Sequence record: SRR22947727_1620
DNA: 61,870 bases
Direction: 5' to 3' (one strand)
Both the position numbers and the translations under genes were made by a program. Position 1 is the first letter of the stretch. Each line of letters opens with the position of its first letter. The notes beneath the pieces are model-generated. The model saw only the letters and a program-made list of their open reading frames with translations. It did no database searches and was not told the origin of the DNA. This document shows positions 14,114 through 45,644 of this stretch, piece by piece.

Positions 14114-14452
14114 TTAGTTTATGCCTGCTTTTCCATTCTCTCTTGTCCTTATTCTATACGCGTCTTGTACATCAGAAACAAAAATCTTACCGTCTCCTAC
14201 ATTTCCTGTACTGGCGGCTTCCAAAATGGTATTTATAGTCGGTTCTAGAAATTCATCAGAAATTACTATGGAAAGTATTCTCCTTTGAATGTCAGAAGTA
14301 CTGTAGCTAATGCCTCTGTAGACATGTCCTTGCTTTTCATTTCCAACGCCGGTTACGTCCCAGTAGCTAAAGAAGTTAACCTCTATGGCGTGAAGGGCTT
14401 TTTTGACGTCGTCAAATTTTGATTTTCTAATAATGGCTTCCACTTTTTTCAT
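14114..14452 (-). CDS. glnB: P-II nitrogen regulatory protein (GlnB/GlnK)
   Basis: 112 aa; MKKVEAIIR, T-loop YRGISY, TGNVGDGKIFVS, RIRT; directly upstream of amtB, so GlnK-like by position. Confidence 0.92.
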   Translation of the reverse strand: MKKVEAIIRKSKFDDVKKALHAIEVNFFSYWDVTGVGNEKQGHVYRGISYSTSDIQRRILSIVISDEFLEPTINTILEAASTGNVGDGKIFVSDVQDAYRIRTRENGKAGIN

Positions 14453-14505
14453 AATGGGACTGTTATTTATGGGTTAATACGAAGTAAACTTATGTATTTG
14501 TAATT

Positions 14506-19363: not shown

Positions 19364-19372
19364 TTAAGTTCT

Positions 19373-20479
19373 ATGAAAGAAGATTTTTATGACATATTAG
19401 GTATTTCTAAAAGTGCCACAGCTGCAGAGATTAAAAAGGCTTATAGGAAAAAAGCCATTGAGTACCATCCAGATAAAAATCCTGGAGATTCAAAAGCAGA
19501 AGAGCTTTTTAAAAAATCTGCAGAGGCTTACGAAGTTTTAAGTGACCCTAATAAAAAAGCCAAATACGATCAGTATGGTCACCAAGCATTTGAAGGTGGA
19601 TTTGGTGGCGGTGGCGGAATGAATATGGATGACATATTTAGCCAATTTGGTGATGTTTTTGGTGGTGCCTTTGGAGGTGGATTTGGTGGATTCGGCGGCG
19701 GCGGCCAGCGAAGGGCTAAAGGGAGTAACCTTAGGATTAGGGTGAAACTAAATCTTGAAGAGGTAGCACAAGGGGTAGAGAAGACCGTAAAAGTCCGAAG
19801 AAAAAAGCAGGCAGATGGGGTTACTTATAAGACTTGCGCCACTTGTAATGGTCAGGGTCAAGTCACTAAAATTGCCAACACCATATTGGGTAGGATGCAA
19901 ACGGCTGCAACCTGTAGTAGCTGTAGTGGAAGCGGACAAATTATAGATTCCAAGCCAAATGATGCTGACGCTCAAGGAATGGTGGTTCAGGAAGACACTG
20001 TGAGTATTCAAATACCTGCAGGAGTAGAAGACGGAATGCAGTTAAAAGTTGGAGGAAAAGGCAATGATGCTCCTGGAAATGGTGTTCCTGGTGACTTAAT
20101 AGTTGCCATTGAGACTTTAGAGCATGAGACCTTGAAAAGAGAAGGAGATAACCTTCATTATGATTTATATATCAGTTTATCAGACGCTGTATTGGGGACT
20201 TCTAAAGATATTGATACTGTTTCTGGTAAAGCCAGAATTAAACTTGAGCCTGGTCTGCAGTCTGGAAAAATATTAAGACTCAGAGGGAAAGGTATCAAGA
20301 GTATTAATGGTTATGGAGCGGGAGATTTATTGGTGCACGTTAATGTATGGACACCAAAAGAATTGAATAAAGAGCAAAGGACCTTTTTTGAAAAGATGCA
20401 AGGAGATGAAAATTTTGAGCCAAAGCCGGAAAAATCTGATAAGTCATTTTTTGAAAAGGTAAAAGATATGTTTGCTTAA
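19373..20479 (+). CDS. dnaJ: Chaperone DnaJ
   Basis: J-domain HPD, G/F-rich region, CxxCxGxG repeats, adjacent to grpE. Confidence 0.97.
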   Translation: MKEDFYDILGISKSATAAEIKKAYRKKAIEYHPDKNPGDSKAEELFKKSAEAYEVLSDPNKKAKYDQYGHQAFEGGFGGGGGMNMDDIFSQFGDVFGGAFGGGFGGFGGGGQRRAKGSNLRIRVKLNLEEVAQGVEKTVKVRRKKQADGVTYKTCATCNGQGQVTKIANTILGRMQTAATCSSCSGSGQIIDSKPNDADAQGMVVQEDTVSIQIPAGVEDGMQLKVGGKGNDAPGNGVPGDLIVAIETLEHETLKREGDNLHYDLYISLSDAVLGTSKDIDTVSGKARIKLEPGLQSGKILRLRGKGIKSINGYGAGDLLVHVNVWTPKELNKEQRTFFEKMQGDENFEPKPEKSDKSFFEKVKDMFA

Positions 20480-20521
20480 ACCTTTTTGTTGTTTTATGTA
20501 GAATTTATGTATATTTGATTT

Positions 20522-20611
20522 TTACTTAATAGTACAACTATTAGGTAATTCTTTTTCATAGCAATTTTTTTTCCCATCCTTAGAACTCGTTTTAAGGGTG
20601 GGTTTTGCTTT
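20522..20611 (+). ncRNA. Putative stand-alone small RNA (~85-90 nt)
   Basis: Own promoter (TTTG 20485-20488, TATATTTG 20510-20517), 5' hairpin 20524-20546, unpaired U-rich segment, terminator 20573-20602 followed by TTTTGCTTTT. Confidence 0.65.
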
Positions 20612-20666
20612 TAAAGGCCGCTTGGTGTCAGTTTATTTGCTTATTTTAGAAGCGTAAATAATTCTT

Positions 20667-21515
20667 ATGAATGCGATTCAGAAATTTTTAGGGCTTATAA
20701 AAAATGCGCTGACTACTCCATTGTTCCCATCGGATACAATTCATATTACCATAGGGACTATTCTTTTAATTATAACAGCCCTAATTTTTGTAAGTTATCT
20801 TTTGAAGCTTATTAAAAAGATTGTTAATGCAAAATTACCTGAAGAAGACAAAAATAAGTTTGCAAGCATATTTGGGTTTTTAAAGTATCTCTTCTATATA
20901 CTGGTTACGATAACGGTCTTACATTCTTCCGGTATTGATCTCACTGTTTTTCTTACAGCCTCTGCCGCTTTATTTGTTGGTCTTGGTTTTGCACTTCAAT
21001 ACTTATTTCAAGACATTATTTCAGGTATTTTGATCATTTTAGATCAATCACTACACGTTGGAGACATTATTGAAGTAGATCAGAAGGTGGGTAAGGTATT
21101 TGAAATTAAATTGAGAACCACCAGAGCCATTACCAGAGACGACAAGGTGATAGTCATTCCAAATCATATTTTCCTAACAAACAGTATTTTTAATTATACG
21201 CAAAACCATAAAACAACCCGTGAAAAGGTCACTATAGGCGTGTCTTATGCATCAGATATAAATTTAGTGACTGATTTACTAGTGTCAGTTGCTGTAGCTC
21301 AAAAAGGCGTCTTAAAATCTCCTAAACCTTTTGTTTTATTTGATGATTTCGGAGATTCCGCCCTGGTATTTTCGCTGCACTTTTCTATTGCAGATTCTTT
21401 CACGGATCCCAAGTTGAAAAGTGAGATTCGTTATAAAATTGCAGCGATTTTTAAAGATAATAAGGTGTCCATTCCATTTCCACAAAGAGATGTTCACCTG
21501 TATAAACATCCCTAA
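20667..21515 (+). CDS. Small-conductance mechanosensitive channel (MscS family)
   Basis: VGLGFALQ..DIISG, VGDIIEV, IPNH, IPFPQRDVHL. Confidence 0.92.
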   Translation: MNAIQKFLGLIKNALTTPLFPSDTIHITIGTILLIITALIFVSYLLKLIKKIVNAKLPEEDKNKFASIFGFLKYLFYILVTITVLHSSGIDLTVFLTASAALFVGLGFALQYLFQDIISGILIILDQSLHVGDIIEVDQKVGKVFEIKLRTTRAITRDDKVIVIPNHIFLTNSIFNYTQNHKTTREKVTIGVSYASDINLVTDLLVSVAVAQKGVLKSPKPFVLFDDFGDSALVFSLHFSIADSFTDPKLKSEIRYKIAAIFKDNKVSIPFPQRDVHLYKHP

Positions 21516-22685
21516 ATGAATTCAAATATTCTTGTTGTTGAAGATGAAGCAGCTATTAGTAGGGTGCTTGTAAAAATACTATCAGAAGCCTTTGAGACTT
21601 ATGAAATAGAGGCTGCCTTTGATGGGCAATCTGCTATTGAAATGATTCAAAGCAAGGACTATGCCTTAGTTTTATGTGATATTAAAATGCCTAAAATGGA
21701 TGGGGTAGAAGTGCTTATTAAAGCTAAAGAAATTGCGCCATTTACTTCATTCATTATGATATCTGGTCATGGCGATCTTGAAACTGCTGTGGAAACAATG
21801 CGATTGGGTGCTTTTGATTATATTTCAAAACCGCCTGATTTAAACAGGTTGTTGACCGCTGCAAGGAATGCCCTTGAGAAAAAAGATTTATTGGTTGAGA
21901 ATACTTTGCTCAAACAAAAAGTATCTAATGGATATGAAATGATCGGTAAAAGTGAAGCCATATCTCATGTGCAACAAATGATTGATAAAGTAGCTCCAAC
22001 AGACGCAAGGGTTTTGATTACTGGCCCTAATGGTAGTGGAAAAGAATTGGTTGCCCATTGGATTCACCAAAAAGGGCCTAGGCTAACAGCAGCCTTTGTA
22101 GAGGTGAATTGTGCTGCTATTCCTTCTGAACTTATTGAAAGTGAATTATTTGGTCACGTAAAAGGGGCTTTTACCTCTGCTGTAAAAGATCGGTCAGGAA
22201 AATTTGAAATGGCACATGGGGGTACCCTATTTTTAGATGAGATAGGGGATATGAGTCTTTCTGCTCAGGCTAAAGTACTTAGGGCTTTACAAGAGCAAAA
22301 AATCACTAGGGTAGGCTCTGATAAAGACATTAAAGTAGATGTGCGGGTTTTAGCTGCCACTAATAAAAACCTTAAAGAAGAGATTAAGGAAGGGCGTTTT
22401 AGAGAAGATTTATACCACCGTTTGGCCGTAATTATTATTGATGTACCGGCTTTAAATGAACGAAAAGAAGACATTCCATTACTGATTAATCATTTTTCAA
22501 ATCAAATAGCCAATGCTCAGGGTGCCCAACCCAAAGTTTTTTCACAAGAGGCCATTAGTGCGCTACAGTCTTATGATTGGACTGGAAATATTAGAGAATT
22601 ACGCAATGTTGTTGAGCGACTGTTAATTTTAGGCGCTACTGAAATAAGCAGTGAAGACGTGCGTTTATTTGCTTCTAAAAATTAA
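21516..22685 (+). CDS. Sigma54-interacting response regulator (NtrX/NtrC-like, REC + AAA+, no C-terminal HTH)
   Basis: REC (VEDE, LCDIKMP, KP), Walker A GPNGSGKE, ESELFGHVKGAFTSA, FLDEIGD, WTGNIRELRN; ends right after the AAA+ lid. Confidence 0.9.
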   Translation: MNSNILVVEDEAAISRVLVKILSEAFETYEIEAAFDGQSAIEMIQSKDYALVLCDIKMPKMDGVEVLIKAKEIAPFTSFIMISGHGDLETAVETMRLGAFDYISKPPDLNRLLTAARNALEKKDLLVENTLLKQKVSNGYEMIGKSEAISHVQQMIDKVAPTDARVLITGPNGSGKELVAHWIHQKGPRLTAAFVEVNCAAIPSELIESELFGHVKGAFTSAVKDRSGKFEMAHGGTLFLDEIGDMSLSAQAKVLRALQEQKITRVGSDKDIKVDVRVLAATNKNLKEEIKEGRFREDLYHRLAVIIIDVPALNERKEDIPLLINHFSNQIANAQGAQPKVFSQEAISALQSYDWTGNIRELRNVVERLLILGATEISSEDVRLFASKN

Positions 22686-40204: not shown

Positions 40205-40347
40205 AATAATGTTAAAATTCTACCGATTCAAGCTATTTATGGCCTCCTTTTTTATAAAGGATTTACGGACAGCTTTTTAAATCCAAACAAAGCATCGTTT
40301 TTTCGAATAAATACGGTATATTTGCACGCAATTAAACTTTAATTGCT

Positions 40348-41820
40348 ATGCAAGCACATCTTGACAAAATTGTAGGAGAAGGTCTCACTTATGACGACGT
40401 ACTCTTAATCCCAGCCTTTTCAGAAGTACTTCCAAGAGAAGTTAATATTCAAGCGAAGTTTACAAGAAACATTACGATCAATGTTCCTATTGTATCTGCT
40501 GCTATGGATACTGTAACCGAATCTCGTATGGCTATTGCCATGGCTCGAGAAGGAGGAATAGGGGTGCTGCATAAAAACATGTCTATTGAAGCGCAGGCTT
40601 TGAAGGTTAGAAAAGTAAAGCGTGCAGAGAGTGGAATGATTATAGATCCTGTGACTTTACCATTAACCGCTACGGTAAAAGATGCTAAAGACAATATGAG
40701 AGAGTTTAGTATTGGAGGGATTCCAATTGTAGACAAGGACCATAAACTTTTAGGCATTGTGACCAATAGAGACTTACGTTTTGAGAAAAATAATGCCAGG
40801 CCTATTTCAGAGGTCATGACCTCTGGTGAATTAGTGACAGTAGCAGAAGGTACCTCTCTGGCTCAGGCAGAAGATATTTTACAGCAAAATAAAATAGAAA
40901 AATTGCCTGTCATTAATAAAGACAATAAGTTAGTAGGGCTAATCACATTCCGTGATATAACCAAGCTTACTCAAAAACCTATTGCCAATAAGGATTCGTA
41001 TGGTAGACTCAGGGTTGCAGCGGCACTTGGTGTAACTGCAGACGCGGTAGATCGTGCAGCAGCACTGGTCAAGGCAGGAGTAGACGCAGTTGTTATAGAC
41101 ACAGCTCATGGACACACCCAAGGCGTGGTAAATGTACTTAAGGCGGTAAAAGCCTCATTCCCAAATTTGGAGGTTATTGTAGGTAATATAGCTACTGGAG
41201 AAGCGGCTAAATTTTTAGTAGCAGCTGGTGCAGACGCAGTTAAAGTGGGTATAGGACCTGGATCAATATGTACTACAAGGGTAGTGGCAGGGGTTGGTTT
41301 TCCGCAATTCTCAGCAGTTTTAGAAGTAGCTGCTGCTATAAAAGGCAGTGGCGTTCCAGTGATAGCAGATGGTGGAATTAGATATACAGGAGACATTCCT
41401 AAGGCAATAGCAGCTGGCGCAGATACTGTGATGTTAGGCTCTTTGCTTGCTGGGACTAAGGAATCTCCAGGAGAAACAATCATTTATGAGGGTAGAAAAT
41501 TCAAGTCTTACCGTGGAATGGGCTCTGTAGAAGCCATGAAACAAGGGAGTAAAGACAGGTATTTTCAAGATGTAGAAGACGACATTAAGAAACTGGTTCC
41601 TGAGGGGATTGTAGGAAGAGTACCTTATAAGGGAGAACTTTTTGAGAGCATCCACCAATTTGTTGGTGGGCTTAGAGCAGGAATGGGTTATTGCGGTGCA
41701 AAGGATATTGAAAGCCTTAAAGCGCACGCTAAGTTTGTTAAAATTACTGCTAGTGGTATAAATGAAAGCCATCCTCACGATGTGACCATTACTAAAGAAT
41801 CCCCAAATTACAGCAGGTAG
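40348..41820 (+). CDS. guaB: IMP dehydrogenase
   Basis: [20 protein letters not shown] pair, [21 protein letters not shown]. Confidence 0.97.
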
Positions 41821-45150: not shown

Positions 45151-45188
45151 AAAAAAAAATCCTGAGTCTTGACTCAGGATTTTTTTTT
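45151..45188. terminator. Bidirectional terminator overlapping the DUF1456 stop codon
   Basis: A-run + TCCTGAGTC-TT-GACTCAGGA + T-run. Confidence 0.8.
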
Positions 45189-45644
45189 GTTTTTATAGGC
45201 CACAAAACTCAAATCTGGTGGGCTTTTTGGCCCTTTTTTGAATGGTTTTTTTGACCCGTCCTTAAAGCTTGCTTTTTTCTTGTAGGTTGTTTGGTCCAAT
45301 CTATTCTTAGGAGGGGTGTTTTTTAAAGAAACGTTATCTGTTTTTTGTTGTGTTGTTGCATTGGCCGTTTTGGCTTTGGCCATAACAGGTTTGTGTACTA
45401 ATGCGTCTGCAGGTTTTTTAGGCGCTTCCTTGGTTCCTCTTGTGTATATAATTAAACCATTCAAAAAATTTCTCAATATCTGGTCACCACATTCCATATA
45501 CTTAGGGTGGTCTTCAGTTCTAAAAAAAGCGCCTAATTCGCTGGTACTTATTTTGAAATCTACCAAACTCATGATGGCTTCAATATCTGTGTCTCTGAGC
45601 ATGAGCGCTACACGTAATTTTTTTAAAATATCATTATTAGTCAT
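45174..45644 (-). CDS. DUF1456 family protein with Lys-rich tail
   Basis: MTNNDILKKLRVAL, ECGDQILRNFLNGLI. Confidence 0.85.
   Translation of the reverse strand: MTNNDILKKLRVALMLRDTDIEAIMSLVDFKISTSELGAFFRTEDHPKYMECGDQILRNFLNGLIIYTRGTKEAPKKPADALVHKPVMAKAKTANATTQQKTDNVSLKNTPPKNRLDQTTYKKKASFKDGSKKPFKKGPKSPPDLSFVAYKNKKKS

Follow-up and report, generated by a model that had tools for sequence, protein, structure and literature searches.

The stretch of DNA analysed here, 61,870 nucleotides of sequence record SRR22947727_1620 (hereafter the window), carries between dnaJ and a gene for an MscS-type channel a small RNA (sRNA) gene that we call RNA-A; a second sRNA found in the same analysis is called RNA-B. 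An initial annotation had proposed at this site a stand-alone, plus-strand sRNA gene that is promoted and terminated separately, and both the architecture of the locus and its homologues support the proposal; as far as comparison of sequences can tell, RNA-A is a real and widely conserved sRNA gene. The features of the locus are the following.

19373-20479, + strand: dnaJ, the upstream neighbour, an open reading frame (ORF) with the Pfam domains DnaJ, DnaJ_C and DnaJ_CXXCXGXG
20485-20488, + strand: TTTG, a possible -33 element 21 nt ahead of the -7 box; the weak part of the promoter
20510-20517, + strand: TATATTTG, a -7 box of the Bacteroidota type (TAnnTTTG), read in the sequence and invariant in the aligned copies
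20524-20546, + strand: predicted 5' hairpin of 10 bp with a 3-nt loop
20547-20572, + strand: unpaired stretch of 26 nt, AAUUCUUUUUCAUAGCAAUUUUUUUU, single-stranded in the centroid fold
20550-20564, + strand: invariant 15-nt seed core TCTTTTTCATAGCAA, within the unpaired stretch
20573-20602, + strand: intrinsic terminator hairpin of 13 pairs, five of them G-C and two G-U, with a 4-nt loop
20603-20612, + strand: U-rich tail TTTTGCTTTT directly 3' of the terminator stem, the inferred 3' end of RNA-A
20667-21515, + strand: gene for an MscS-type channel (Pfam MS_channel_2nd and MS_channel_3rd), a downstream neighbour only

Architecture of RNA-A

TAnnTTTG is the -7 promoter consensus of Bacteroidota, a phylum to whose promoters a sigma-70 promoter scan is inapplicable, and TATATTTG is, by its sequence and placement, the predicted promoter of RNA-A. 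All eight columns of the box are invariant in 15 aligned copies of RNA-A, the seed core is likewise without change among aligned copies, and the distance of the box from the seed is 25-35 nt in the copies listed; the position of the TTTG element is inconsistent among homologues. Judging by the position of the -7 box, transcription would start at about 20522-20524. The + strand RNA folds with -30.2 kcal/mol (z score -6.5, equalled by none of 200 shuffles) and the - strand RNA with -15.6 kcal/mol (z score -1.6, equalled by 11 of 200), and the tail pattern GGGTTTTG(C/T)TTTT is kept among the aligned homologues.

Every element that the initial annotation had read at the locus was recovered. Its promoter, TTTG-N21-TATATTTG, lies where it had been placed; its unpaired segment is confirmed as the 26 nt between the helices, as is its 13-bp plus-strand terminator with G-U pairs; and its 5' hairpin is present, with 10 bp and a 3-nt loop in the computed fold as against 9 bp and a 5-nt loop in the annotation. 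On the + strand, the spacer between dnaJ and mscS contains no ORF of 20 or more amino acids; the - strand carries a 27-amino-acid ORF at 20494-20577 that is not conserved.

Conservation, covariation and range of RNA-A

The family set comprised 301 genomes, one representative per genus, of which 260 are of high quality; the family name, Flavobacteriaceae, was taken from the taxon names of records that carry the RNA-A 19-mer. The exact 15-mer TCTTTTTCATAGCAA occurs in 266 of the 301 genomes (~88-89% of genera) and in 237 of the 260, against only ~16 genomes for the reversed 15-mer in the same set; both strands were searched, so that a match may also be a complementary site. The full architecture (box, 5' hairpin, seed and terminator) was found in 30 of 30 genomes whose matches were inspected. 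With a 19-nt pattern searched in one genome per GTDB species, at least 120 records matched; among the 120 matches listed, 97 passed a strict box-plus-terminator pattern, ~15 more are by eye variants with slightly different boxes or stems, and nearly every taxon named is a genus of the Flavobacteriaceae, with strains of Tenacibaculum, Polaribacter, Maribacter, Dokdonia, Winogradskyella, Aquimarina and Gillisia among them. Bins assigned to Alteromonas and to Dyadobacter contain one typical copy each, which we take to be binning or labelling errors.

Similarity of the DNA to that of relatives extends beyond the dnaJ stop codon into the spacer, also in other genera. The letters of the 5' hairpin differ between genera, yet every copy folds. 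Because MAFFT by itself misaligned the hairpins, RNAalifold gave no structure, and a covariance model was built from 12 well-aligned copies and a hand-written structure; it found 45 copies of RNA-A at E <=0.01 in 41 sources. In these 45 copies, standard pairs make up 96.6% of the pair cells (94.3% in the 5' hairpin, 98.7% in the terminator) against 77.0 ± 0.8% in column shuffles, and only 36-50% of cells are paired when the partner column is slid by 1-3 positions. Changes on both sides occur in 17 of 21 pairs, namely 10/10 in the 5' hairpin and 7/11 modelled pairs of the terminator, and none of 500 shuffles reaches any of five covariation measures. The alignment used for these counts was fitted to the model and thus favours structure; the slid controls and the visible differences between hairpin sequences argue against an artefact. 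U-G is the commonest type at one terminator pair, and the structure therefore fits the + strand only.

The initial annotation had named seed conservation and stem covariation across the family as a check on its proposal, and lack of seed conservation as evidence against it. The check, once run, found the opposite of such a lack: the core is exact in 266/301 genomes while 17/21 pairs covary. That the unpaired stretch is invariant while both flanking helices covary supports its being the functional core of RNA-A.

The covariance model matches 8 of 15 family genomes; in 17 further families of the same order, represented by 136 genomes, it gave a single match, a weak one (E 8e-4). Across these genomes RNA-A is restricted to the Flavobacteriaceae. 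Within a large genus (g190) the model matches two of nine species, and in the window's genus RNA-A is present in 9 of 17. Elsewhere in the window (45152-45190), TCCTGAGTC..GACTCAGGA forms a perfect inverted repeat, bordered by runs of A and of T, which looks like a bidirectional terminator and gives a weak, chance-level match to the RNA-A model (E 0.06).

A second sRNA family complementary to the seed

Five exact anti-seed sites, and then many more, sit in one shared element, RNA-B (loci L271-L278 in the window's genus, L147-L176 and L117-L146 in other genera). It begins with a TAnnTTTG box, its own putative promoter, followed by a stem of variable sequence that encloses (A)AUUGCUAUGAAAAAG(U/A) as its loop (also written AAUUGCUAUGAAAAAGU), by a second conserved unpaired motif, UUUAUUUAUUGGUUAGGUUG, and by a terminator. 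A putative AUG opens reading frames of differing length and frame, and RNA-B is therefore taken to be non-coding. Its genomic position is its own, either ahead of a TetR-like gene and fabH or facing the gene for an S9 peptidase. A sequence-only model, with E <=1.3e-6 counted as strong, gave strong matches in at least 42 of 151 genus representatives (~28%), a minimum given the stricter filters applied. RNA-B is absent from the window itself; the closest complete-enough relative (G011) has an RNA-B with a perfect 15-nt match to the seed. Two homologous loci (L126 ~1400-1570 and L139 ~1400-1560) share only the 3' module of RNA-B (UUAUUGGUUAGGUUG and the terminator) behind a different 5' part, and this module may be a seed or protein site common to several RNAs.

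The loop of RNA-B is complementary to the seed consensus of RNA-A over an unbroken 12-21 nt, including G-U pairs, in 33 of 34 loci, and the A to G substitutions seen in the loop retain pairing as G-U. Complementarity is also found past the U-run, where the 5' arm of the RNA-A terminator, CCCAUC, can pair with RNA-B. GGGA occurs within 30 nt upstream of the anti-seed in 21/38 RNA-B loci, compared with 6.9% of control windows, and at its fifth position the arm (CCCAU or CCCAC) agrees with the base in RNA-B (AUGGG or GUGGG) in 10 of the 11 motif-bearing lineages, including a double change inside one otherwise uniform RNA-B group; in 6 of 17 lineages examined, the motif is missing from RNA-B or reduced to GGG. 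For 14 pairs from the same genome, the predicted duplexes have energies of -36 to -50.5 kcal/mol against -20 to -26 kcal/mol with shuffled RNA-B (z scores of -2.5 to -8.0), values that ignore intramolecular structure and that the best of 60 shuffles beat in one of the 14 pairs.

The two RNAs also tend to occur together. The RNA-A 15-mer is present in 41 of 42 genomes with RNA-B, and RNA-B in one of 17 genomes without the 15-mer (a 610-contig assembly); this is only mild support because the base rate of RNA-A is 89%, and an RNA-B with the exact 15-mer would itself count as a match. RNA-A was verified in 23/23 genomes from which both RNAs were fetched. Among the 17 species of the window's genus, eight have both RNAs, eight have neither and one, a 64%-complete assembly, has RNA-A only; in the eight species with neither, the RNA-B model reaches at most 17 bits, against 38-40 bits in two positive controls. 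On the strength of this complementarity, RNA-B is the only conserved partner of RNA-A found.

A conserved element upstream of a rhodanese/trhO-like gene in two genera (L039 ~1380-1760, + strand; L088 ~330-760, - strand) contains the anti-seed in all its 15 nt and, further downstream, a motif common to both loci, CUGUAAAG.CGAUGGU.GUUA, and may be a further partner RNA or a leader.

Genomic setting and transcript data

The nearest upstream ORF on the same strand is dnaJ for 54 of 62 RNA-A copies, the remaining eight lying elsewhere. The usual downstream gene encodes a natA-like ABC ATPase, replaced in the window's genus by the MscS-type gene; of 47 copies in which an ORF was seen downstream, 45 have it in the same orientation as RNA-A. 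Nothing terminator-like occurs between the dnaJ stop codon and the RNA-A promoter; dnaJ transcripts therefore probably end at the RNA-A terminator, whose hairpin lies 94 nt 3' of that stop codon, and probably carry the RNA-A sequence at their 3' end. Between the RNA-A terminator and the start of the natA-like gene there is a promoter-like box in 33/34 loci, which argues that RNA-A is a separate transcription unit and not simply the natA leader.

Several genomes carry more than one copy. Four tandem copies (C1:570949-571994, L058) and three more are found in genome G082, two each in G022 (C1:5187786-5188197, L025) and G068 (C1:2137335-2137503), and seven matches to the RNA-A model in G448. The copies in tandem arrays each have their own -7 box, and the array of G022 sits between dnaJ and an RNase P RNA gene (Rfam match).

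In one subgroup of genera (L015, L048, L053, L365, L368, L370), the natA-like leaders carry AAA(A)UUGC 4 nt before the AUG, 7-8 nt of which are complementary to the 3' part of the RNA-A seed. In the window, the MscS-type gene is followed by a gene for a sigma-54-dependent response regulator (Response_reg and Sigma54_activat; 21516-22685) that begins 1 nt past its end, a spacing from which the two genes are probably co-transcribed.

This stretch of the window was found in 13 RNA-library runs from several studies; in the four of them examined, assembled contigs span dnaJ, RNA-A and the next gene and show no ends, strand or level. In a 981-nt contig from a marine RNA library, the match is confined to the seed and the beginning of the terminator (window 20549-20581), and the flanks of the contig form a different 5' hairpin; it is the RNA-A homologue of another organism in a metatranscriptome assembly, which is no proof of expression.

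Proposed mechanism and candidate mRNA targets

We think it probable, and the best explanation of the data, that 20522-20612 (+ strand) encodes a ~90-nt trans-acting, base-pairing sRNA with its own promoter and intrinsic terminator. RNA-A would be transcribed from its Bacteroidota-type promoter behind dnaJ and would end at the intrinsic terminator, and its working part would be the unpaired stretch between the two structural hairpins, pairing via the seed UCUUUUUCAUAGCAA. Where RNA-B exists, the first contact would be made between seed and loop and would then zip into a two-helix duplex of ~15 + 5-9 bp, by which one of the partners would be titrated or destroyed, one RNA serving as sponge or anti-sRNA to the other. 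As FopS and GibS do in Bacteroides, RNA-A would additionally block ribosome access at messenger RNA (mRNA) starts of the UUGCUAUGAAAAAG type, and genes with GCUAUGAAAAAG-like start sites would be repressed. The seed is invariant in the ~70% of genera where RNA-B was not found, which implies further partners; following the same analogy, mRNA start regions are the likeliest. That the position behind grpE-dnaJ brings extra RNA-A output under heat shock is speculation.

Some of the points that weigh against this explanation concern the mRNA targets. The seed core UCUUUUUCAUAGCAA is the exact antisense of a start-like region, UUGCU-AUG-AAA-AAG-A, and the matches quoted by the initial annotation are all present in the window: AATTGCTATG at guaB (40341-40350, 10 nt), TATGAAAAA at glnB (14445-14453 on the - strand, 9 nt) and CTATGAAA at dnaJ (19372-19379). 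With RNA-A's own locus left out, the window contains 10 matches of at least 10 nt and 50 of at least 9 nt to the 26-nt stretch, and the 10-nt match to guaB is therefore not special. The guaB start region was located in 26 of 30 loci across genera and keeps the 10-nt match in only 6 of these 26, while AAUUGC adjoins the AUG in 25 of the 26 and serves as 3' arm to a palindrome, GCAATTAA-N5-TTAATTGC, that is conserved in guaB's own leader. The proposal of the initial annotation that guaB is a conserved target was accordingly rejected. The proposal for dnaJ fared no better, its start regions varying and none of 25 carrying UUGCU (the pattern used located 25 starts among 38 loci, none of them from the genus of the window).

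The guaB leader was also noted for itself: in the window (40318-40350) and at loci L177-L206, a -7 box is followed by the palindrome, which ends 1-3 nt before the AUG and looks like an operator or a leader hairpin of guaB.

In five species of the window's genus, sites with at most two mismatches number 286 against 204 for the reversed control, only ~1.4 times as many. Good sites kept within that genus lie at the starts of an FNR-like gene, of uvrA and of an SPFH lipoprotein gene; the complementarity of the first two is lost in other genera and the third gene occurs in only 2 of 41 genomes, and all three were set aside. Near-perfect sites in five complete genomes that lack RNA-B are scattered over unrelated places. 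Thus no conserved mRNA target was found among guaB, dnaJ, the FNR-like gene and uvrA, each followed across 25-30 genera. The initial annotation had proposed that RNA-A would occlude AUG-AAA-AAA starts; of the exact 15-nt sites outside RNA-A, 10 of 24 are starts of long MKK signal-peptide ORFs from unrelated families, and their frequency is about that expected by chance (~0.1 exact ORF-start sites per genome, a rough hand estimate). Copies of the anti-seed just before terminators in three 3' untranslated regions (L097, L108 and L111) were likewise judged explicable by chance, because A-tracts precede many terminators.

To these are to be added the eight species of the window's genus that lack RNA-A although their genomes are 91-99% complete, which makes RNA-A dispensable; the presence of RNA-B in only ~28% of genera, so that it cannot explain the invariance of the seed everywhere; the joint loss of both RNAs in those eight species, which may be a single event; the RNA-library contigs, uninformative as to a separate transcript; and the qualifications given above for the duplex energies and the model-fitted alignment.

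Alternative explanations

The most probable alternative, one that we nevertheless hold to be unlikely, is that RNA-A is mainly a cis-acting leader or attenuator whose promoter also feeds the downstream gene and whose terminator is a switch opened by RNA-B. RNA-B would pair with the seed and then with the terminator 5' arm of the nascent RNA, causing read-through, and would thus be an antiterminator. The co-oriented downstream ORF in 45/47 copies and the widely retained order dnaJ-RNA-A-natA fit this, as do the 5-9 nt by which the complementarity of RNA-B extends into the terminator 5' arm, covarying with it, and the AAAAUUGC located 4 nt before the AUG in the natA leader of one subgroup. The co-orientation, however, is explained by inherited synteny, and in 33/34 cases a separate promoter-like box lies between the terminator and the natA-like gene. 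Tandem arrays exist, some copies face convergent genes, and in the window's genus the downstream gene is a different one while the RNA is unchanged. In Flavobacterium psychrophilum, natA has its own mapped start site without RNA-A, according to the supplement of PMC9723704.

Somewhat less probable still is that the conserved U-rich stretch is a binding site for a protein or the ribosome (an RRM-type, RbpB-like protein, or S1/30S), RNA-A being a decoy or stabilised by the protein. An invariance over 15-20 nt exceeds the needs of most pairing seeds, no conserved mRNA target was found, and in Bacteroides FopS and GibS have single-stranded 5' portions to which RbpB binds (PMC11697453). It speaks against a protein site that the exact reverse complement is kept in an independent RNA, with G-U-tolerant variation and a covarying adjoining arm, features predicted by RNA-RNA pairing and not by protein binding; protein binding and pairing can, moreover, coexist.

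It is very improbable that RNA-A is a mere dnaJ 3' untranslated region and terminator with no separate function, although no other terminator is found up to the hairpin 94 nt downstream of the stop codon and dnaJ adjoins 54/62 copies. The initial annotation had itself named this role of the hairpin as the outcome that would speak against an sRNA, and it is contradicted by the invariant -7 box at a fixed distance, by the 8/62 copies that are not behind dnaJ, by the arrays and by the separate promoter-like boxes of the natA-like genes. Eight species of the window's genus keep dnaJ without RNA-A, an invariant non-structural stretch lies between covarying helices, and terminators do not retain 15 nt of upstream sequence over ~270 genera. 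Finally, a small protein (MKK...) encoded on the minus strand, whose start region would account for the conservation, can practically be dismissed: the 27-amino-acid ORF at 20494-20577 exists and the anti-seed resembles an ideal A-rich start region, but among 75 distinct copies the ORF varies from 5 to 53 amino acids, is most often of seven (MKKKNYH) and encodes no conserved peptide beyond what the RNA dictates, and promoter, G-U pairs and U-tail alike agree with the + strand.

Relationship to known RNAs

Rfam 15 has no match at gathering thresholds anywhere in the window; between 20400 and 20750 the best match has an E-value of 1.1 and 17.8 bits against a gathering threshold of 44, and RNA-A homologues from other genera also remain below threshold. 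The Rfam search called for by the initial annotation thus agrees with its failure to recognise the RNA as one of a named family. RNA-B likewise gives nothing above threshold in Rfam, DapZ appearing only as a sub-threshold match.

Among pairs of regulatory RNAs, comparison may be made with the sponges and anti-sRNAs of enterobacteria (GcvB-SroC, or ChiX and its chb decoy), in which one RNA mimics a target site and pairs with the seed of the other. Most of those sponges arise by processing of mRNAs or spacers, and they require Hfq, whereas RNA-A and RNA-B are both stand-alone genes with promoters of their own, and their predicted pairing reaches the terminator arm. CopA/CopT and RNAI/RNAII are similar in the contact between a loop-presented motif and an unpaired stretch, from which pairing may extend to adjacent helices; they are cis-encoded on opposite strands of one locus, unlike RNA-A and RNA-B, which lie at separate chromosomal loci and share only ~30 nt. 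DapZ and MicL, like RNA-A, lie at the 3' end of a protein gene and share its terminator, so that they can be made from their own promoter or with the mRNA; there is no homology, and the RNA-A promoter follows the dnaJ stop codon and does not lie inside the gene.

Within the phylum, the nearest counterparts are FopS and GibS of Bacteroides thetaiotaomicron, which bind next to start codons and block translation initiation (PMC11697453). They share with RNA-A an Hfq-less phylum, a promoter of canonical Bacteroidota type, a seed that is single-stranded and has a terminator hairpin behind it, and multiple copies in some genomes; their seeds pair beside start codons and so block translation, as is proposed for RNA-A. 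RNA-A differs from them in having no sequence or Rfam-model match to them (FopS is stated in that paper to be deposited in Rfam, its presence in the release used here not being confirmed), in a 5' hairpin that makes its seed internal and not 5'-terminal, in its usually single copy at a fixed syntenic site behind dnaJ, in its Flavobacteriaceae range and in having a second, complementary sRNA conserved as its partner.

Rfp18 and the other Rfp sRNAs of F. psychrophilum come from the same family, are conserved beyond the species and have predicted pairing; Rfp18 pairs via its third stem-loop and affects metalloprotease mRNAs (PMC9723704). The sRNA list in the supplement of that report contains no match to 10- to 13-nt substrings of the seed, and the spacer between dnaJ and natA is annotated there without an sRNA. 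The match in only two of nine species of g190 fits these data. In a literature search with subscription journals, and supplements beyond that of PMC9723704, outside its scope, 13-nt substrings of either RNA were unmatched and keywords gave nothing. Taken together, sequence comparisons suggest that RNA-A is a base-pairing sRNA of a new family, distinguished by unusual breadth, a fixed locus, an unchanging seed and a conserved partner RNA.

Significance

A more far-reaching reading, to which we give a minor chance, is that RNA-A and RNA-B form a family-wide trans-encoded antisense pair, in which the loop captures the seed and then invades the 5' arm of the terminator. If this were so, and if it happened on nascent RNA, RNA-B would be a trans-acting RNA antiterminator of an intrinsic terminator, and the 3' end of the grpE-dnaJ heat-shock operon would be coupled to a downstream ion-homeostasis gene (natAB or mscS). 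On finished RNA, the two partners would destroy each other, and this switch would fix the amount of free anti-start-codon RNA left for the repression of MKK-type secretome mRNAs; the phylum, to our knowledge, has neither Hfq nor ProQ nor Shine-Dalgarno pairing.

Regulation by RNA has hardly been explored in Bacteroidota. The Flavobacteriaceae are major degraders of marine and freshwater organic matter and include fish pathogens, and the literature search found sRNA work in this family only for F. psychrophilum and F. columnare, with one tested sRNA, Rfp18. Against this background RNA-A stands out, being usually present in a single copy at one syntenic site in ~88% of the sampled genera. It may offer an entry point to the use of antisense RNA at start codons without Hfq or Shine-Dalgarno pairing, and the covariance models could serve to annotate two new RNA families in hundreds of genomes and in metatranscriptomes.

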